The position numbers and the translations under genes are program-made. A stretch of DNA of 64,000 nucleotides from Geobacter metallireducens GS-15 (GTDB lineage Bacteria; Desulfobacterota; Desulfuromonadia; Geobacterales; Geobacteraceae), in the NCBI RefSeq assembly GCF_000012925.1, contig NC_007517.1:70351-134350 (forward strand). The letters are read 5' to 3'. The notes beneath the pieces were generated by a model. The model saw only the letters and a list, made by a program, of their open reading frames with translations. It ran no database searches and was not told the DNA's origin. The first letter of the stretch is position 1. Every line of letters begins with the position of its first letter. Shown here one piece after another: positions 20,753 to 33,247 of the stretch.

Positions 20753-21124
20753 TTATGCTGTCGGCAACCGGCAATAGGTCTGGCCAAGGGCGACGATTTC
20801 TTTGCTGGGGTCGGCATTTTGAACGATCAAATAACAGGCGTAGCGGGATAGAAATACCGATTTTACCTGGCGTTTCGCGCCACTGCCGAGATCGACCATT
20901 TCGGTGACGTCAACGAAATGGTCATCTATCCGCTGGCCGCTGTTGAAGCAGGCGGTACGTGCCTTGGTGACTACCTGCTCGAAGTTGCGATAGTCAGCAT
21001 AATCCAGAATCTGGGCAAAATCGCGGCTTGACCAGAATTCACTGCCCGCGTCATTGGTGCGTTTGATCTGCTCGAAGGGAGAGACGTGTTTACCGGCAAT
21101 GTCTTTCGATAATCGTTTGCTCAT
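20753..21124 (-). CDS. DinD-like / Bro-N (KilA-N) domain protein, ~50% GC
   Basis: 123 aa from the ATG at 21124 (RBS gaggg). Sequence MSKRLSKDIAGKHVSPFEQIKRTNDAGSEFWSSRDFAQILDY resembles E. coli DinD and Bro-N domains. GC is markedly lower than the flanking gat genes. Confidence 0.6.
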   Translation of the reverse strand: MSKRLSKDIAGKHVSPFEQIKRTNDAGSEFWSSRDFAQILDYADYRNFEQVVTKARTACFNSGQRIDDHFVDVTEMVDLGSGAKRQVKSVFLSRYACYLIVQNADPSKEIVALGQTYCRLPTA

Positions 21125-21162
21125 TTCAGAGCCCTCACCATTCCCGCCTTTTGTGATCGCCC

Positions 21163-22620
<1,458 letters not shown>

Positions 22621-25377: not shown

Positions 25378-26886
25378 TCAGAGGATGGGGGTCAGCGGCA
25401 GCGACTTCCAGAGGCGCAGCCTGTTCCGCTTGGCCGCCGAGGCGCGGCGGTCCGGGTTGTCCGTGGCCGGATTCCAGCTGTTCTCCGGGCGCATGTCCCG
25501 CTCGATCCGCTCCTCCACCTGGCGGGCCAGGGCGGGGTTGCGGACCATCACCCCCACCTCGGTGTTCAGGTTGGCGGAACGGGGGTCCAGGTTGAAGGTG
25601 CCGACGAACAGAGTCACGCCGTCGATCACCATGGTCTTTGCATGGAGGGCGAAGGTGGGGGGCTTCTCCTTCAGCTTCGGGTAGCGGTCGATCAGCTCCT
25701 GCCGCACGGCCGGGTCCGGGCGGAATTCCCGGATGGTGATCCCCGCCTTCAGGAGCCGGTTGCGCTGCTTCCGGTAGCCGCTGAAGGCCTGGAGGTTGTC
25801 GGTGGCGGCCAGGGAGTTGGTGACGATCCGCACCTCCACCCCGCGCCGGATCAGCTTCCGGAACAGCTCCACGCCCCCCTCGGGCATGACCAGGTAGGGG
25901 GACTGGATGGTGACCCGCCGCTTGGCCCGGCTCACCGCGTCCACCAGGGCCGCCGTGCTCCGGCCGCCGCCCCCCAGTCCCTCCCGGCCGCTGTTCTTTC
26001 CCGGCAGGTCCGAGATGAAGCGGGCCTCGTCCCAGACCATCTCCCGCAGCAGCCCGTCGAACCTGCGGGGGAGGTTCTGGAGCGCCTGGCGGACCTCCGG
26101 GGCGAAGTTTTCCGGCTTCCCGGCATAGGCGTGGAGGCCGGCATAGACCTGGCCGGTCCGCTCCGGCGTCATCTTCTTCATGGGCTTTTTCAGCAGCTTC
26201 TCCACCGGCACAGCCAGGGGGCTCTCCCAGAAACGGGCGAAGCTCGCCTCCGCCTCGGCCACAGTCGGGCCGAGCATCAGCATGTCCCGGTCCCGGAAGG
26301 TGTACTCCTGGTCGAAATCGTAGTACTCGTCGGCCATGTTGCGGCCGCCGGTGATCCCCACCATGCCGTCGAAGAGGGCGGTCTTGTCGTGCATCCGCTG
26401 GTTCACGGAACGGAAGCCGGTCACAACGTTGGCGAACCGCTTCACCTTCGAGGTTCCCACCGTCATCTTCGGGTTGTAGATCCGGATGTCGATGTTGGGG
26501 TGACGGGCCAGGGCCAGGAGCGATTCCGGCGGCGCGTCGATGAGGAGGTCATCCACCAGCACCCGCACCCGTATCCCCCGCTCCGCCGCCCGCAGCAACG
26601 CCTCCGAGGCCAGGATGCCGATGTTGTCGCTGCTCCAGATGAAATACTGGACGTCGATGCTCTTCGTGGCGTGGTCCGCGAGCCACGCCCGGGCCAGGAG
26701 CGACTCTTCCCCCTTTTCCAAGACATAGAGGCCGGTCTTGCCGGGGTGGGCAGACAGCAGGGGCTGGATGCTCCGGGCCAGGGGAAGCGTTACCGGGGTG
26801 GTTTCGGCGGCTGACAGGCGTGCGCCGGGAACGGCGGTGAGTATGAGAAGGAGTGACAGGGTGATAAGGAGCAGAGGTCGGATCAT
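25378..26886 (-). CDS. secreted phospholipase D-family protein (Cls-like, two HKD motifs)
   Basis: Signal peptide MIRPLLLITLSLLLILTAV. HKD motifs HDKTALFDGMVGITGGRNM and HAKTMVIDGVTLFVGTFNLDPRS. Confidence 0.8.
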   Translation of the reverse strand: MIRPLLLITLSLLLILTAVPGARLSAAETTPVTLPLARSIQPLLSAHPGKTGLYVLEKGEESLLARAWLADHATKSIDVQYFIWSSDNIGILASEALLRAAERGIRVRVLVDDLLIDAPPESLLALARHPNIDIRIYNPKMTVGTSKVKRFANVVTGFRSVNQRMHDKTALFDGMVGITGGRNMADEYYDFDQEYTFRDRDMLMLGPTVAEAEASFARFWESPLAVPVEKLLKKPMKKMTPERTGQVYAGLHAYAGKPENFAPEVRQALQNLPRRFDGLLREMVWDEARFISDLPGKNSGREGLGGGGRSTAALVDAVSRAKRRVTIQSPYLVMPEGGVELFRKLIRRGVEVRIVTNSLAATDNLQAFSGYRKQRNRLLKAGITIREFRPDPAVRQELIDRYPKLKEKPPTFALHAKTMVIDGVTLFVGTFNLDPRSANLNTEVGVMVRNPALARQVEERIERDMRPENSWNPATDNPDRRASAAKRNRLRLWKSLPLTPIL

Positions 26887-27020
26887 TACAAAGAGCCTCG
26901 TTTCAATTGTCGGGAAGAGCGCGCAAAAAGGGCAGTCCCGCAGCAGTTTCGGCAGTTTTGGGGACAGTTTATTTCTCTGTCGAATAACCTGTCCCCAGAC
27001 AGAGAATGTCATAGTTTCTT

Positions 27021-27911
27021 CTACCTGCGCTGCAATGCGATGTATCTCGCTACATCATCCCATTTGACAGAGAAATCAATCAATTCTCGTTTGACTTCGA
27101 ATTTAGTCTGCGCTGATGGAGTGGTACGGGCGAATTCCATAAGCCCACGTCGAGGGGCAATTGCTCCAGCCAGCAAATTTTCTGTGGTCTGCGCCAAATC
27201 TGATGGGCTCATACCAAGTAAAGTCGCCGGACTCGAAGAAGGATAAAGTAGGTTTGATAAATTGTGCGTTGCCGGTTGAAACTCGGGTACCTTGGGTACT
27301 TGGGTCTCTTTGTAATTTGGTTTTAACAGCAGTTTCTCTCTTCCCAGCAGCTTTTCTCTGAATTCCTTCGATACTCTGCTCTGTCCAGGGGAAACCCTTG
27401 ATTCCATTTTGCACGCCCTATGTAACGCCGGGCCTATGGCTGTCACAAACGTATCTCCTCGTGGCCCTATTTTGGCCAATATCAATTTCCCATGGTGCAG
27501 AATTGTTTTAGTCAAAAAATGATATTTACTGAAGGTTGCATCGAGAGATTTCATCTGTAGAGCTGCTATTCGGCAGTAATATGCGGCATAAAGAACAGAG
27601 AGTGCGTTCACTTTGTCTGCTCTGAAATAGGCAATGATGCTATCTCCGACATATTCGACCTGATCATCGTCAGCGCCAAATTCGCGGGATATTTCATCAA
27701 CCGAGGAAAGAAAAGTATGAGCTAGCTTGAGATATGTCTTATGAGTCCGCGTCCAGGTGAATAACGTCGAATCAACGAGGTCAATTTTGAGCATGTAGAA
27801 CTCACGCTCGGTCCCCTCACCGCGTTTCAAGGCAGATGGAACTTTGTCTACAATTCCGCCGGCAGCCTCGTTATAATGTTTATTTATAATCTCATCGATT
27901 GTCTTAGCCAT
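27021..27911 (-). CDS. class III nucleotidyl cyclase homology-domain protein (cyclase B), low GC
   Basis: 296 aa. CHD motifs KIDLVDSTLFT, YVGDSIIAYF and GDTFVTAIGPALHRACKMES. Confidence 0.7.
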   Translation of the reverse strand: MAKTIDEIINKHYNEAAGGIVDKVPSALKRGEGTEREFYMLKIDLVDSTLFTWTRTHKTYLKLAHTFLSSVDEISREFGADDDQVEYVGDSIIAYFRADKVNALSVLYAAYYCRIAALQMKSLDATFSKYHFLTKTILHHGKLILAKIGPRGDTFVTAIGPALHRACKMESRVSPGQSRVSKEFREKLLGREKLLLKPNYKETQVPKVPEFQPATHNLSNLLYPSSSPATLLGMSPSDLAQTTENLLAGAIAPRRGLMEFARTTPSAQTKFEVKRELIDFSVKWDDVARYIALQRR

Positions 27912-28372
27912 TGTCAGATACCCTGGGTTGCTGGTTATTTACTACAGTAATACAGAAACAACATCCGACCCCAAAAACCACAGACGAGCCATGCCATTAC
28001 AAGAATATATGCCCATTTCAATCTAACTTCTTTCATGTCTCTAATGTATGCCAGCTTCATTTGCTCAAACACCAATTCTTGTTTGATGGCATCAATGGTG
28101 TCTGGAAGTTTTTTGACATAGTCCTCCAAGCGTACCTTCGAGGAAATATCCCTATTGATAAATGCATCACGTAATCCAAGATCGTACAACCCATCATTGT
28201 AGAAAGTCCCGATGGGGCAGTCCGTGAAAGTAACGTGGGATTTTGGATTGTGAATTGCCATTACGGACCGCATTGCAGCAACGAAGGCAGCAAACCATGT
28301 ACAAAGGAACAACATAATTAGCGCCCAAAGTTGCCACTGGCCAGGCCCACAATATACAGTCTGATGTAGTTT

Positions 28373-28380
28373 CGAAAAAT
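28373..28380. repeat. 8-bp target-site duplication CGAAAAAT (left copy)
   Basis: Identical octamer directly abuts both ends of the ISL3 element. Confidence 0.7.
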
Positions 28381-29752
28381 GCCTCGTCCGCAGAATCTGT
28401 GGGTAGTTGGCTGAAAAAATAAGGGCATTGCCCCTCCGTGAAGGATAAGATTGTTTTTGCGAGAAACGATCAAGTCCGACACGGGAGAAGCAATGCTTAT
28501 CAAGACTGTACTGAACAAGTTCGAGCGTTTCAAGTCCTTCATTTACGGAGATTGCCGACTGGCGAAAGTCGGCGGCTCAGAAGCACTGGTCATTGACATC
28601 AAGGCTCGTCGCAACAGCAAGCCCGAATGCCCGGAATGTGGCAAGCGAGGCAAGACATACGACACGCAACCGGCCCGACTGTTCGAGTATGTGCCGATCT
28701 GGGCGTTCAAGGTCTTCTTTCGCTACGCTCCCCGTCGGGTTCTGTGCCCAATCCATGGGGTAAAGGTTGAATCCCTCCCCTGGGGGTATGGCAAAGAGCA
28801 AATGACGATCTCGTACCAGGTCTATCTTGCCCGGTGGGCTCGGCGACTCTCCTGGAAGGAAGTTGCCGAAATCTTTAAGACCAGTTGGGACAGCATCTTT
28901 CGGGCGGTGCAGTATGCTGTCGATTACGGCCTGGCAAACAGAAACCTTGATGGCGTTACGGAAATCGGTGTTGATGAAATTGCCGTCTTCAAGGGCCATC
29001 AGTATCTTACGATGGTCTATCAGCTCAATGCCGGCGTCAGGCGTCTTCTCTGGTGTGGTCCGCAACGTCGGATAAGAACGCTACTGCGCTTCTTTCGGGA
29101 ATTCGGCAAAGAACGCAGCGCCAAGCTCAAGTATGTCTGCAGCGACATGTGGGCACCGTATCTCAAGGTTATCGCCAAGCGGGCACCCAATGCCGTGAAC
29201 ATCCTCGACCGCTTCCACATCATGCGGAAGTTTAACGAAGCGATTGACGAGGTTCGGCGCACCGAAGCCAAGGAGTTCAAGGCCGCCAAGCAGGAGAACG
29301 TCCTGGAAAAGGGCCGTTGGTTGCTGCTGAAACGGCCGGAAAATCTGTCCGAGAAGCAGACGTCACGATTGGGAGATTTGCTCAAGCTCAACCTCTCATC
29401 AATCAAGGCATATCTGCTGCGCGAGGACTTTCAGCAGTTCTGGGACTACCAGCGGTCTGACTTTGCTGGCAAGTTCCTCGACGACTGGGTCATCAGGACA
29501 ATGCAAACTGACCTGGAACCGATGAAGAAGGTTGCCAGGATGTTACGCAACCACAAACCGATGATTCTCAACTGGTTCAAGGCAAAAGGCCGACTTTCCA
29601 GCGGCGCGGTAGAGGGTCTGAACCTCAAAGCAAAACTGACTATCAGAAAAGCGTACGGTTTCCGAACCATCAAGTGCCTGCAAGTGGCGCTATATCACAC
29701 ACTTGGCGACTTGCCAGAACCCCTGTGTCACCACAGATTCTGCTAAAGAGCC
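28381..29752 (+). mobile_element. ISL3-family insertion sequence (1372 bp)
   Basis: Imperfect 22-bp terminal inverted repeats (gcctcgtccgcagaatctgtgg versus the reverse complement ggctctttagcagaatctgtgg, 17/22 identical). The right terminus ends in GGCTCTT on the reverse strand. 8-bp direct repeats and a single transposase ORF are present. Confidence 0.85.
28493..29746 (+). CDS. ISL3-family transposase
   Basis: 417 aa from the ATG (RBS gggaga). N-terminal zinc ribbon CPECGKRG and a DDE transposase core typical of ISL3 (IS1165/IS204 type). Confidence 0.85.
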   Translation: MLIKTVLNKFERFKSFIYGDCRLAKVGGSEALVIDIKARRNSKPECPECGKRGKTYDTQPARLFEYVPIWAFKVFFRYAPRRVLCPIHGVKVESLPWGYGKEQMTISYQVYLARWARRLSWKEVAEIFKTSWDSIFRAVQYAVDYGLANRNLDGVTEIGVDEIAVFKGHQYLTMVYQLNAGVRRLLWCGPQRRIRTLLRFFREFGKERSAKLKYVCSDMWAPYLKVIAKRAPNAVNILDRFHIMRKFNEAIDEVRRTEAKEFKAAKQENVLEKGRWLLLKRPENLSEKQTSRLGDLLKLNLSSIKAYLLREDFQQFWDYQRSDFAGKFLDDWVIRTMQTDLEPMKKVARMLRNHKPMILNWFKAKGRLSSGAVEGLNLKAKLTIRKAYGFRTIKCLQVALYHTLGDLPEPLCHHRFC

Positions 29753-29760
29753 CGAAAAAT
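29753..29760. repeat. 8-bp target-site duplication CGAAAAAT (right copy)
   Basis: See left copy. Confidence 0.7.
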
Positions 29761-29969
29761 TGAGATATATCTTTCCTGAATTAGTAAGTGCCAAGATCAA
29801 TATGCCCATCACAACAGCTGCTTTGGTGTCATTAACCCTAATAGCAGATTGAATATCTGTGATCGAGGCGTATAGGAATGCCAATATTTTTCCATCATTC
29901 TCTTTGCTCATTATCATTACCCTTTAACACCCCTTGTGCTTATCACTCAATGGCTTGCAAAATGTACTA

Positions 29970-30644
29970 TTAACCTCGATTCTTACGCTGTAGCAATGGA
30001 GGATGCAGTATTCGTTTTGTTACATTTTGTGGTTCTATACTCATGAGTTTCATGCAACTGACTCTCCTACTACCTGCAATATTACGAAGGGTTCTCTCTA
30101 CCTCGGTAAAACGCCACTGTATAGTATCTTGTTTGATAGAATTGTAAAGATTTTTGGTCATCAGCATCTTATTAGCAGGATTCTTGTCGCGATCTTTTAT
30201 TGCGCTTTGCAACCTACATGCAACGTTCAGTGGCCGTCCCACATATTCGTCACGATGGTTCAACCTTATCTTGATTAACCGTCCGCGATCCATTCCGATT
30301 GTTAGACCTATAATTTCTGGTGGAGTTTCTAAAACCGGGTGGATTTTCTGCTCATAGAGATGTTTAAACGTGGTGCACAATTTTCGAATGAATGGAAGAA
30401 GCTTTTCTCCGTCAATATTGTGATCAAATAGAAGAATCCAGCCATCGCCAGTGAAGTTATAGAGTCGGAAAGGAAAGTTATCTCCTTGTTCTACGATGAA
30501 TTTCTTTACACCTATCAACAAATTACGCCATTTTTGCAAATTGTCGGTGCGATGAAGATCTTCAAGAATATCTGTAGATGAGCATATGTCGAAAACTAAA
30601 ACAGCGGCCATAACTTCCTGCGCCATGTCAGACTCTTGTGTCAT
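29970..30644 (-). CDS. class III nucleotidyl cyclase homology-domain protein (cyclase A), low GC
   Basis: 224 aa. Motifs VLVFDICSSTD, NFTGDGWILLF and GRPLNVACRLQS, with canonical metal-binding Asp residues and transition-state Asn/Arg. RBS gaggag. Confidence 0.7.
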   Translation of the reverse strand: MTQESDMAQEVMAAVLVFDICSSTDILEDLHRTDNLQKWRNLLIGVKKFIVEQGDNFPFRLYNFTGDGWILLFDHNIDGEKLLPFIRKLCTTFKHLYEQKIHPVLETPPEIIGLTIGMDRGRLIKIRLNHRDEYVGRPLNVACRLQSAIKDRDKNPANKMLMTKNLYNSIKQDTIQWRFTEVERTLRNIAGSRRVSCMKLMSIEPQNVTKRILHPPLLQRKNRG

Positions 30645-30754
30645 TAGTATATTCTCCTCTGTTCAACATAATTATTGAGCGGTTCACGCGCACGCGCGCA
30701 TGAACCGCTCATCCCCCCAAACAGAACATTTCTCCCGTAACAGGATTTCCCGCC

Positions 30755-33247
30755 TCACGCCTGAGGCTGCTTCCCCCCCTTCGCCATCAACGCATTCAAA
30801 TCCACCCCCGGCAGCAGCCGGGTCAACTGCCCCATGAGCCCGTCGCCGGCTGTGCCGCCGCCGGAGACGAGCACATCGGGGACGATCTTGATCTGGCCGT
30901 TTTCGATGGCGGCGGAGATCAGTTCGACGATCTTGATCTGCTTGATGGCGTCTTCGCCGATGGCCTCTTTCTGTTTCGAGTAGGCCTGGGCGGTGGCGTC
31001 GCCGATGGCGGCGATCTTTGACGCCTCGCCGTCGCCGATGGCCTTCAGCCGCTTCCCTTCGCCGGTCCCTTCCAGGGCCTGGGCTTCGGCGGTACCTTCG
31101 GCCAGGGTGATCATCTCGGCCTTCTTCTGGGTGGCCACCTTCACGGCGATCTCAGACGCCACGAGGGTAGGCTGCTGGTCGGCGGTGGCCCGCATCTTCT
31201 CCATCTCGGTCCGCTCGGCCTGGGAGCGCTGCTCCATCTTGTACATCTCCTGCTGCTGCTCGGCGATGATCCGCTTGGTCTGGGTCTCCATCAGGTCTTC
31301 GGGGAGCTTGATCTGGCATATGAGTACGGAGACACACTCCACATGGTACCTCTCCAGGTCGATGCGGGCACGGCTCTCGGCTTTGGACTGCTCTTCGGAG
31401 CGGCTCTGGAGGAAGTTCATGGCCGAGGCGGTAGAGGCCTGGTTGCGGAAGGAGGAGTCGATCATGGGGTGGATGACGTGCTGGATCAGGTTGTCGATGG
31501 ATCCCACCTTTGCCACCATGTAGGGGGCCTGGTCGGGCCGGACGCGGATGACCACCTTAACCGCCACCTGGATGGGGAAGCCGTCCTTGGAGATGACGGT
31601 GAGCTGGTCGAAACGGGTGTCCTCCTGGTCGTCCCAGTCGATGGTGATGTTGGTGGTGTCGATGATGTAGCACATGAAGGCCCGGCGGTTCAGGTAGTAA
31701 CGGCCGGGTCCGGCCACCTCCTCCTGGATCCCCCGGAACCCCTTGGGGACCACGTACTTCTCTTTCCCCTCCTCGATGGAGGCGCCGGTCTGGGATGAGC
31801 CGAGCCGCTTCTTCATCTCCTCCGTCGGGTCATCCCCCACGTTGGAGACGATGACCCCCACCTGGCCCCGCTCCACCACGGCCACATCGTCAATGGCGAC
31901 GCTGAACATGAGGGGGTTGATGTAGTAGGTGCCGGGGCGAAGGACGTCGAGCTGCGGTCCCCGCTGGCCGCTCTTGGTGAGGAAGGCGGAGCCGTCCTGG
32001 TAGTCGTTGTGGCCGGTGATGGGGGAGGCGACATACTCCCGCTCCGGCAGGGGGATGCCGTCCAGGGCGGTGACCAGACCGATCTTGTTGGCCTCCACGA
32101 CCGCCGCCGGGGCGATCTGGATCTGGAACAGGTTCAGGTTGATCCGGTAGGTACCGGGGAGGAGCACGTCGATCTGGGGCCCCTTCTGGCCGCCGTTTTT
32201 CAGGAATGCCTCGCCGTTCTCGAAGTTGGAGTGCTCCGGCACGCTCTGGGCCAGGAGCCGCCCCATTGGGATCGGTTCGCCGTCCTGGGCCGTGACCATC
32301 CCCACCTCACCCTTGGCGATGACCACCGCCGCCGCCTTCATGATGCGGAAGAGATTGGGATGGATCCGGTAGACCCCCGGCGGCAGGATTTCGATCTGGG
32401 GTCCCTTCTGGCCGCCGTTCTTGATGAATGCCTCGCCGTCCTGAAAGGAGTTGTGCCCCGGCACCACGTTGGCGAAGATCCGCCCCGCGGGGATGGCCGA
32501 GCCGTCCGACGACTCCACCATGCCGATCTCCCCTTCGCTGATCTTGGTGGCGAGGCTCTTGGTGACCTTGAAGAGGTAGGGGTTGATCCGGTAGTTGCCC
32601 GGCGGGATGATCTCGATCTGGGGCCCCTTCTGGCCGCCGTTCTTGATGAACGCCTCGCCGTTTTGGAAGGAGGCGTGCCCCTCCACCGCCCTGGCGAAGA
32701 TTTTACCCTCGGGGATGGCGGCGCCATCCACCGACTCGACGATGCCGATTTCCGTGTCCTTGATCTCGGTGACAGTCCCCTTGGTCAGCTTGAAGAGGTA
32801 GGGGTTGATCCGGTATTTCCCCGGAGGGAGCACCTCGATCTGGGGCCCCTTCTGGCCGCCGTTTTTGATGAAGGCCTCGCCGTCCTGGAAGGAGTTGTGA
32901 CCGGTTACCACCTCGGCGAAAATCCGCCCCGCCGGAATGGCGTTGCCGTCCACCGATTCGATGAGGCCGATCTCGTTGTCGAGGATTTCCGTGAAAACGC
33001 TCTTGGTCGCCTTGTAGATGAAGGGGATGAGGAAATGGAGCCCCGGGCCGAGGGTGCGGGCCTGGATGCCCACCTCGTTCCCCAGGGCCACGACACGTCC
33101 CTGGGGCATCTTGCTCCCGAACCAGCGCCGCTCGATGAGGGCGATTTCGTTACCGCCGACAATGACGATTGAGGCATAGAGGAGGACGGCAATGGGCACC
33201 AGTGCGGCAAAGTACCCCCAGTGGTCAAGAACGACATTTAATAACAT
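30755..33247 (-). CDS. flotillin-like SPFH/band-7 protein with tandemly repeated N-terminal modules
   Basis: 830 aa. N-terminal TM segment, five or more ~75-aa repeats (IGxVESxDGxAIPxGRIFAxVVxGHxSFQDGEAFIKNGGQKGPQIExLPPGxYRINPYLF), then an SPFH domain and a flotillin C-terminal coiled coil. Confidence 0.8.
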   Translation of the reverse strand: MLLNVVLDHWGYFAALVPIAVLLYASIVIVGGNEIALIERRWFGSKMPQGRVVALGNEVGIQARTLGPGLHFLIPFIYKATKSVFTEILDNEIGLIESVDGNAIPAGRIFAEVVTGHNSFQDGEAFIKNGGQKGPQIEVLPPGKYRINPYLFKLTKGTVTEIKDTEIGIVESVDGAAIPEGKIFARAVEGHASFQNGEAFIKNGGQKGPQIEIIPPGNYRINPYLFKVTKSLATKISEGEIGMVESSDGSAIPAGRIFANVVPGHNSFQDGEAFIKNGGQKGPQIEILPPGVYRIHPNLFRIMKAAAVVIAKGEVGMVTAQDGEPIPMGRLLAQSVPEHSNFENGEAFLKNGGQKGPQIDVLLPGTYRINLNLFQIQIAPAAVVEANKIGLVTALDGIPLPEREYVASPITGHNDYQDGSAFLTKSGQRGPQLDVLRPGTYYINPLMFSVAIDDVAVVERGQVGVIVSNVGDDPTEEMKKRLGSSQTGASIEEGKEKYVVPKGFRGIQEEVAGPGRYYLNRRAFMCYIIDTTNITIDWDDQEDTRFDQLTVISKDGFPIQVAVKVVIRVRPDQAPYMVAKVGSIDNLIQHVIHPMIDSSFRNQASTASAMNFLQSRSEEQSKAESRARIDLERYHVECVSVLICQIKLPEDLMETQTKRIIAEQQQEMYKMEQRSQAERTEMEKMRATADQQPTLVASEIAVKVATQKKAEMITLAEGTAEAQALEGTGEGKRLKAIGDGEASKIAAIGDATAQAYSKQKEAIGEDAIKQIKIVELISAAIENGQIKIVPDVLVSGGGTAGDGLMGQLTRLLPGVDLNALMAKGGKQPQA
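31570..32960. repeat. intragenic tandem coding repeats (~225-240 bp units) within the flotillin-like gene
   Basis: The repeated protein module is reflected at DNA level. It gives rise to the many spurious long ORFs in the other frames of this interval. Confidence 0.6.

Follow-up and report, generated by a model that had tools for sequence, protein, structure and literature searches.

What did an insertion sequence (IS) interrupt, and with what consequence, in a 64,000-nucleotide stretch of Geobacter metallireducens GS-15 (contig NC_007517.1, positions 70,351 to 134,350 of the forward strand; hereafter the window)? A preliminary description of the window, made from the sequence letters, had noted two short open reading frames (ORFs) on the minus strand, one on either side of an ISL3-family element, and had proposed that they are the halves of a single 200-codon gene for a presumed membrane effector. 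We consider it very likely that the element ISGme6 recently split the gene of a Pycsar-type PycTM effector and that this effector is almost certainly dead. The features of the locus are compiled in Table 1.

Table 1. Features of the interrupted cassette and its borders (positions are those of the window)
Feature	Position	Strand	Remarks
Predicted PycTM, 5' fragment, codons 1-55 (cytosolic N-terminal helix and membrane helix 1)	29753-29917	-	
Predicted PycTM, 3' fragment, codons 56-200 (helix 2, ~82-aa soluble region, helix 3)	27935-28380	-	
Upstream cyclase-like gene, 224 aa, divergent PycC-like class III nucleotidyl cyclase	29970-30644	-	ABB30331
Downstream cyclase gene, 296 aa, PycC-like	27021-27911	-	ABB30328
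ISGme6, ISL3-family insertion sequence, 1372 bp	28381-29752	+	Pfam, source-record name, identical copies at other loci
Target-site duplication, left copy, 8 bp, CGAAAAAT	28373-28380	.	
Target-site duplication, right copy, 8 bp, CGAAAAAT	29753-29760	.	Single copy in intact allele L038, 942-949
Left terminal inverted repeat, GCCTCGTCCGCAGAATCTGTGG	28381-28402	+	
Right terminal inverted repeat	29731-29752	-	Reverse complement is GGCTCTTTAGCAGAATCTGTGG
Transposase gene, 417 aa	28493-29746	+	ATG as in public records
Hairpin, 16-nt arms, 4-nt loop, between SPFH gene and cassette	30676-30711	.	
Hairpin, 15-nt arms, 9-nt loop, immediately 3' of the stop of the 296-aa gene	26959-26997	.	

The 5' fragment today reads straight into the IS, giving a 75-aa ORF (29690-29917) with 20 foreign codons before the stop, and the only start left for the 3' fragment is Met75 (28315), from which a 126-aa ORF (27935-28315) can be read. 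When 28381-29760, that is the IS and one repeat copy, was excised in silico, 19 open codons joined the 126-aa ORF in frame, and a single 200-codon minus-strand ORF resulted that starts at 29917 and stops at 27935. Across the junction, the rebuilt protein reads ...IYLNFS, then KLHQTVYCGPGQWQLWALI, then MLFLC.... Both the ORF that enters the IS and the reconstructed frame were found just as the preliminary description had given them. A second ATG, at 29911, corresponds to the start used by more distant homologues (198 aa), and the closest intact allele keeps the MIMSK start and is called as 200 aa. The soluble region of the 3' fragment carries an invariant ELVFEQMKL..IRD motif. NCBI lists the C-terminal fragment in strain RCH3 as 'hypothetical protein, partial' (P0007).

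The closest intact allele lies on L038, a metagenome contig from a public sequencing run that was found via P0021, a cluster mate of the 224-aa cyclase; the uninterrupted alleles that the preliminary description had proposed to look for thus exist, here at 93-94% DNA identity. L038 encodes a 225-aa cyclase, a 200-aa PycTM, and the downstream cyclase up to residue 283, where the contig stops. The gene order is that of the window, with spacers of 49-52 nt and 23 nt, and the PycTM protein starts with MIMSKENDEK and is identical to our reconstruction at 186 of 200 positions. Positions 35-949 of L038 align to window positions 30667-29753 with 93.9% DNA identity, and positions 942-2259 align to 28380-27060 with 93.0%. 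The two blocks overlap solely at 942-949, where L038 reads ATTTTTCG, the CGAAAAAT target as seen on the opposite strand. The intact allele thus has a single copy of the 8-bp target, right where the IS went in, and the window has two, one on each side of the IS; this pattern, a textbook mark of transposition, is the decisive evidence for the insertion. Judged from these alignments, L038 represents a true empty site with an uninterrupted cassette. A scan of the genome collection yielded no G. metallireducens locus and no intact allele closer than 78%.

The element itself is a typical ISL3-family member that already has a name. Its transposase matched the Pfam domain DDE_Tnp_ISL3 (PF01610) with E=1.5e-78, the helix-turn-helix (HTH) and zinc-ribbon domains of ISL3 scored slightly under the Pfam cut-offs, and an exact match of the 417-aa protein in the protein collection is recorded as 'transposase of ISGme6, ISL3 family'. 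The longest transposase ORF begins at a TTG codon (28451). Re-checking the coordinates of the identical 8-bp direct repeats described at both ends of the element showed them to be correct; the probability that an 8-mer is identical by chance at both exact inverted-repeat ends is about 1.5e-5. The terminal inverted repeats, previously given as matching at 17 of 22 positions, match at 18 of 22 by our recount, and a repeat search reported 20-nt arms of 85% complementarity. ISGme6 is a multi-copy element. Its transposase occurs in GS-15 under at least four identical accessions, with a variant under two more, and a further GS-15 copy of the element adjoins pilA (Gmet_1398) (PMC6050967). We compared copies at six other loci, part of them metagenomic; they were 100% identical over the recovered parts, and the full 1372 bp were recovered in five of them. 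The copy in L024 is flanked by a clean 8-bp duplication, ATATTTAT.

Two further observations concern ISGme6 elsewhere and its left end. The copies at L025 1338-2709 and L029 299-1670, both in metagenome assemblies, are without matching 8-bp repeats, and one of the two lies directly 3' of another ISL3 transposase gene, which suggests nested insertion or recombination between copies. An Rfam scan of 26000-32000 returned nothing beyond a sub-threshold match at the left end of the IS (28383-28498, minus strand) to the actinobacterial 'sRNA' Ms_IGR-7, covering the full model at E=0.017 with 27.7 bits, short of the gathering score of 45. The Ms_IGR-7 family may in fact be the end of an ISL3-type element.

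A search of the excised 200-aa product against databases, as had been suggested, returned both a PycTM profile match and intact homologues. The rebuilt protein matched the PADLOC PycTM model PDLC02364 with E=2.9e-13 over residues 14-188, a range that spans the junction at 55/56. Among 5.8 billion proteins searched, we found 12 intact 198-aa homologues with 69-87% identity, all of which bear a precomputed PF18967 (PycTM) annotation. Their alignment with the rebuilt protein crosses the junction without a gap or a drop in similarity, so that the two fragments form one continuous homologue both in these 12 proteins and in the L038 allele. The best conserved stretch of the effector family, ELVFEQMKLAYIRD, lies immediately N-terminal of the last membrane helix. 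The assignment to PycTM rests on the PADLOC profile together with the precomputed annotations of the homologues.

The topology of the rebuilt protein agrees with this assignment. Hydropathy and an AlphaFold model placed three membrane helices at residues ~33-53, 67-92, and 175-197, with a loop of ~82 residues between helices 2 and 3; three transmembrane helices and a soluble loop of ~85 residues had been predicted beforehand. The hydropathy peaks are centred near residues 35-43, 76-87, and 184-188, and the helices of the AlphaFold model, which was built from a 16-sequence alignment and used for helix positions only, span residues 2-60, 67-92, and 148-198. PycTM has been described as a three-transmembrane (3TM) effector of the pJV1-spdB3 family, a description that fits the three predicted helices of the rebuilt protein, and the structure of a related effector, EcPucTM, has been solved as a hexameric channel lined by helix 2 (bioRxiv 10.64898/2026.08.12.744502). 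We conclude that the split gene, by sequence comparison, encodes a PycTM protein, the predicted three-helix membrane effector of Pycsar anti-phage systems. A tblastn search with the effector gave no match in plasmids and one remote match in phages, on a Salmonella contig, and thus no evidence that the effector is carried by plasmids or phages.

The split gene is the middle one of three. On the minus strand, the cassette runs from the 224-aa cyclase through PycTM (198-200 aa) to the 296-aa cyclase. Against the PADLOC PycC model PDLC02367, the 224-aa protein scored E=3.3e-6; the 296-aa protein matched PADLOC PycC with E=4.6e-11, and its match to Pfam Guanylate_cyc was under the cut-off. The closest solved relative of the 296-aa cyclase is 7r65, and the 224-aa cyclase had no match among PDB sequences. 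In an alignment of ten cyclases including both of the window, the DxxxS and GD metal-binding motifs are invariant, and both metal-binding Asp residues are kept in the 224-aa and 296-aa proteins. The 224-aa protein is 82% identical over its full length to P0022, which is encoded upstream of a different PycTM, and its gene is 94% identical in DNA to its L038 counterpart. That it might be a frameshifted remnant of a canonical 240-aa PycC was ruled out by the full-length match to P0022 and by the 225-aa protein of L038. As far as these comparisons tell, it is a full-length member of a different family from the canonical 240-aa PycC.

Cyclases of the 296-aa type recur directly after a PycTM gene in L001-3, L009, L034, L035, and L036, which represent five other lineages, and the two genes often overlap at their stop and start codons. 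In L034, a Desulfuromonadales metagenome-assembled genome (MAG), the pair lies within a type I restriction island; in L035, Geomonas oryzae, it stands as a bare two-gene pair; and in L036, a Moraxellaceae MAG, the 296-type cyclase again follows PycTM. Because the pairing recurs, and does so in a two-gene locus in L035, the effector and the 296-type cyclase look like a self-sufficient pair. The canonical two-gene architecture of Pycsar is departed from in the window, L038, L001-3, L017-18, and L036, all of which have three genes. In L034, a gene lies on each side of PycTM, but the upstream gene (247 aa) has no PADLOC model match. The 296-aa cyclase family also has a conserved C-terminal extension of ~100 aa (residues ~200-296, ...LGMSPSDLA...ELIDFSVKWD...) with no Pfam match, which could be a sensor or a partner-binding region. 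Relatives of the 224-aa cyclase in L020-L023 (47-53% identity, ~204-208 aa) stand alone, with neither a PycTM nor a TIR gene adjoining; one of them lies amid acetate-kinase genes, and the neighbours of another are an integrase and a ParE/Phd pair. The 224-type family is thus not always part of a Pycsar-like pair.

These lone relatives, together with the weak PycC matches of the window cyclases, bear on whether the cassette serves defence at all. It could instead combine a pJV1-SpdB3-like membrane protein, engaged in DNA spread or in physiology regulated by cyclic mononucleotides (cNMPs), with ordinary signalling cyclases, as would agree with the placement of PycTM in the pJV1-spdB3 3TM family (bioRxiv 10.64898/2026.08.12.744502). 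We regard this as very unlikely. The linkage of PycTM to cyclases is tight across phyla, often with overlapping stop and start codons; relatives reside in defence islands, next to type I restriction-modification and a Schlafen-like gene in L034 and with HEPN_AbiV in L017; the window cassette lies within a low-GC island; and the PADLOC models for PycTM and PycC match both types of component. With a PycTM match in the middle and PycC-like cyclases on both sides, the membrane effector of an abortive-infection-type cassette assumed in the preliminary description holds up.

The two parts of the cassette have different closest relatives. Window positions 29913-27014, comprising the effector and the 296-type cyclase, are 83% identical in DNA to L001, where the upstream gene encodes a canonical 240-aa PycC (PADLOC 1.6e-99) that is unrelated in sequence to the 224-aa protein of the window. 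Positions 30667-30032 are 82% identical to L017, in which a 224-type cyclase is followed by a different, 184-aa PycTM and then by a canonical 232-aa PycC (5e-104). The joint falls between 30032 and 29913, at the gene boundary. By this pattern of similarity, the cassette is a mosaic of an L017-like upstream cyclase and an L001-like effector and downstream cyclase. Each donor type holds one canonical PycC, and the window cassette has none. Since the same mosaic is uninterrupted in L038, it is older than the IS and has been kept intact elsewhere.

One might go further and view the cyclase-3TM-cyclase layout as a Pycsar variant in its own right that works by two signals or as a relay and whose flanking cyclases are swapped as modules at gene boundaries. 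We rate this as unlikely. If it were true, divergent cyclases with different triggers, different nucleotides, or a heterodimeric assembly would amount to a new wiring of cNMP defence, and the IS hit could reflect the cost of a re-wired cassette.

The cassette is hosted by a horizontally acquired, AT-rich defence island. This low-GC region extends over ~27014-30667 (2.3 kb without the IS) and has a GC content of 40-47%, compared with 62% for the window. DNA homology sets its edges, with an onset at 30667 (L017 and L038) and an end at 27014 (L001). Only 4.2% of the 400-bp intervals of the window have a GC content under 48%; they make up four segments, two of which are the island. No convincing direct repeats were seen at the island borders. 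In a search for island-free relatives, the exact look-up of the phospholipase D (PLD)-like neighbour found no record match at that start, and we saw no empty site for the island as a whole.

According to the model of Pycsar defence, a cyclic mononucleotide made by the cyclase activates a membrane effector upon phage infection (PMC11224242). By analogy, phage infection would cause a cyclase of the present cassette to make a cyclic mononucleotide, and this would activate a PycTM oligomer, damage the membrane, and abort the infection. The sequence shows that ISGme6 jumped in after codon 55 (55/56), just past helix 1, and duplicated its 8-bp target. Helix 1 is thereby parted from the rest of the protein, and no start codon is available before the middle of helix 2, so that no functional effector would be made. 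A detached helix 1 and a truncated helix 2 argue against any working protein, and the effector is almost certainly inactivated. The earlier proposal that the insertion most likely inactivates the cassette is in line with a break directly after helix 1 and a sole remaining C-terminal start within helix 2.

The effect may extend to the next gene. ISGme6 is oriented opposite to the operon and places 1.4 kb of IS DNA ahead of the downstream cyclase, and a terminator-like hairpin lies within the IS on the operon (minus) strand (28435-28421). Because of the opposed IS and this hairpin, the 296-aa cyclase is probably poorly expressed. The IS also contains a promoter-like site on the minus strand (28533-28505), and the C-terminal 126-aa ORF is intact and includes the motif best conserved in the family. 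With an outward IS promoter or an internal start, a C-terminal fragment might be made that retains activity or serves as a regulator or an antitoxin-like decoy. We consider such a retained function extremely unlikely: helix 1 is missing from the 126-aa fragment, as is the initial third of helix 2, the helix that lines the EcPucTM channel; the promoter-like site is followed by the terminator-like hairpin; and a promoter scan was not above shuffled sequence, with 6 sites against 4.9 expected.

Several results weigh against our view of a Pycsar effector disrupted by ISGme6. A direct Pfam scan of the rebuilt protein gave no PF18967 match at E<=0.1, and a scan of 16 family members detected PF18967 only at E=0.26, in 3 of the 16, so that none was usable. 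The AlphaFold model is mediocre, with a predicted local distance difference test (pLDDT) score of 66 and values below 50 in the 96-143 loop. A Foldseek comparison of this model with the PDB returned nothing under E=0.5, and the PycTM alignment profile gave chance matches only (E>0.5) against PDB sequences. The window cyclases match PycC weakly, and the related cassettes each contain one canonical PycC with E ~1e-99 to 1e-104. The scan for terminator patterns found 8 sites against 4.3 expected from shuffled sequences, which makes the argument for polarity one from a consensus-pattern hairpin. Cyclic-nucleotide synthesis and phage defence by the cassette are attributed to it on the strength of sequence and analogy.

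How old is the insertion, and did selection favour it? When the window is compared with L038, the effector has a ratio of nonsynonymous to synonymous substitution rates (dN/dS) of 0.19 at a dS of 0.17, and the 224-aa cyclase has one of 0.14 at a dS of 0.21. By this measure, the split gene resembles its neighbour, and there is no sign that constraint on it has relaxed. The claim of a recent insertion gains from this similarity, from intact repeats, from the absence of stops and frameshifts, and from the 100% identity of the other IS copies. The insertion is present in GS-15, in RCH3, and in 23 of 23 independent assemblies read. The RCH3 contig shows 100% identity along 10,449 bp and breaks off 3 nt inside the IS, and the Logan assemblies that were read with an identical 296-aa gene all break 28 nt into it. 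In the assemblies examined, we found neither an excision variant nor an intact G. metallireducens allele. We conclude that the insertion is evolutionarily recent, in a relative sense of the word, yet fixed in the sequenced lineage.

Defence effectors broken by an IS are a familiar event, and such a break may be a neutral accident. ISGme6 would prefer AT-rich DNA, would have hit the low-GC island by chance, and would have drifted to fixation. This is the account towards which we lean, by a modest degree. All ISGme6 copies with recoverable flanks reside in DNA of 35-48% GC, with the target duplications ATATTTAT and CGAAAAAT; AT-rich targets are scarce in the window and mostly belong to this island; and the identity of the copies suggests that transposition surged recently. 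The target bias is, however, drawn from six copies only, some of them metagenomic, and it accounts for the landing place and not for fixation. Positive selection for the loss of a costly, leaky, or toxic effector, for instance in phage-free laboratory culture or in a mis-wired mosaic, would account for an IS that struck the effector rather than a cyclase and became fixed in all assemblies read, in a mosaic cassette of two donor types without the canonical PycC of either. We hold selected loss to be possible, if rather doubtful. The same mosaic is intact in L038, with three open frames under purifying selection, so that the mosaic per se is not lethal; the AT-target bias explains the location equally well; and with one fixed insertion in one clonal lineage, selection and drift are inseparable. 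Drift combined with target bias was given about twice the weight of selected loss.

Hairpins bracket the island, and further genes lie on either side of it. The hairpin at 30676-30711 probably terminates the upstream gene and marks the upstream edge of the cassette, and that at 26959-26997 is a candidate operon terminator. Directly upstream of the island, 30755-33247 (minus strand) encodes an 830-aa protein with an N-terminal membrane segment and a C-terminal SPFH/Band 7 domain (Pfam 3.6e-23), which contains about five tandem repeats of ~80 aa, each with ...GEAFIKNGGQKGPQIE.... Directly downstream, 25378-27012 (minus strand) encodes a PLD-family protein in which Pfam detects two PLDc_2 domains (6.5e-37) and for which public records use a later start (502 aa). 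Farther away, at 20753-21190 (minus strand; L016 7194-7631), a 145-aa Bro-N protein is called between gatA and gatB of gatCAB, overlapping the end of gatA; Bro-N domains are commoner in phages and mobile elements.

As a model organism, GS-15 serves the study of metal reduction and interspecies electron transfer. Its genome has a Pycsar-type cassette that automatic defence finders would likely miss, given the split effector gene and the divergence of the cyclases. The cassette is very probably non-functional, which is relevant to studies of phage sensitivity and defence in Geobacter, and the intact, 93%-identical L038 allele with its exact empty site offers an easy basis for repair. The locus also illustrates cleanly how an active ISL3 element can land in a defence island that is AT-rich and was acquired horizontally, and its recurrent cyclase-PycTM-cyclase layout with whole-gene swapping bears on why a number of Pycsar loci contain more than one cyclase, a question raised recently. 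Current understanding is not overturned by these results.

Compared with known systems, the element is an ordinary one. It shares with the ISL3 family, and with ISGme6 as named, a DDE_Tnp_ISL3 transposase with zinc ribbon and HTH, a length of ~1.4 kb, imperfect terminal inverted repeats of which one begins with GGCTCTT, and an 8-bp target duplication in AT-rich DNA; the present copy has no unusual traits and is 100% identical to the others. With other cases in which an IS inactivates defence or toxic genes, it has in common a single clean insertion in the killing component that leaves the other genes intact, and it differs in that selected loss is rather doubtful here. A Pycsar cyclase is expected to make cCMP or cUMP. 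Some Pycsar loci encode several cyclases, and related cyclases are now known to make cGMP; the cyclase-3TM-cyclase order and the exchange of modules at gene boundaries are not described in that account of multi-cyclase Pycsar-1 and Pucsar (bioRxiv 10.64898/2026.08.12.744502). The nearest counterpart is Pycsar with a transmembrane effector, PycC plus PycTM (Tal et al. 2021, as summarised in PMC11224242 and bioRxiv 10.64898/2026.08.12.744502), for which both effector-cyclase and cyclase-effector orders are known. As in those systems, a small class III cyclase adjoins a three-helix PycTM of ~180-200 aa, PADLOC models match, and the genes are located within a low-GC island or in the company of other defence genes. 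In contrast to them, the cassette comprises three genes, with the effector between two cyclases that are both divergent, neither being a strong canonical PycC match, and this effector is interrupted in the GS-15 genome.

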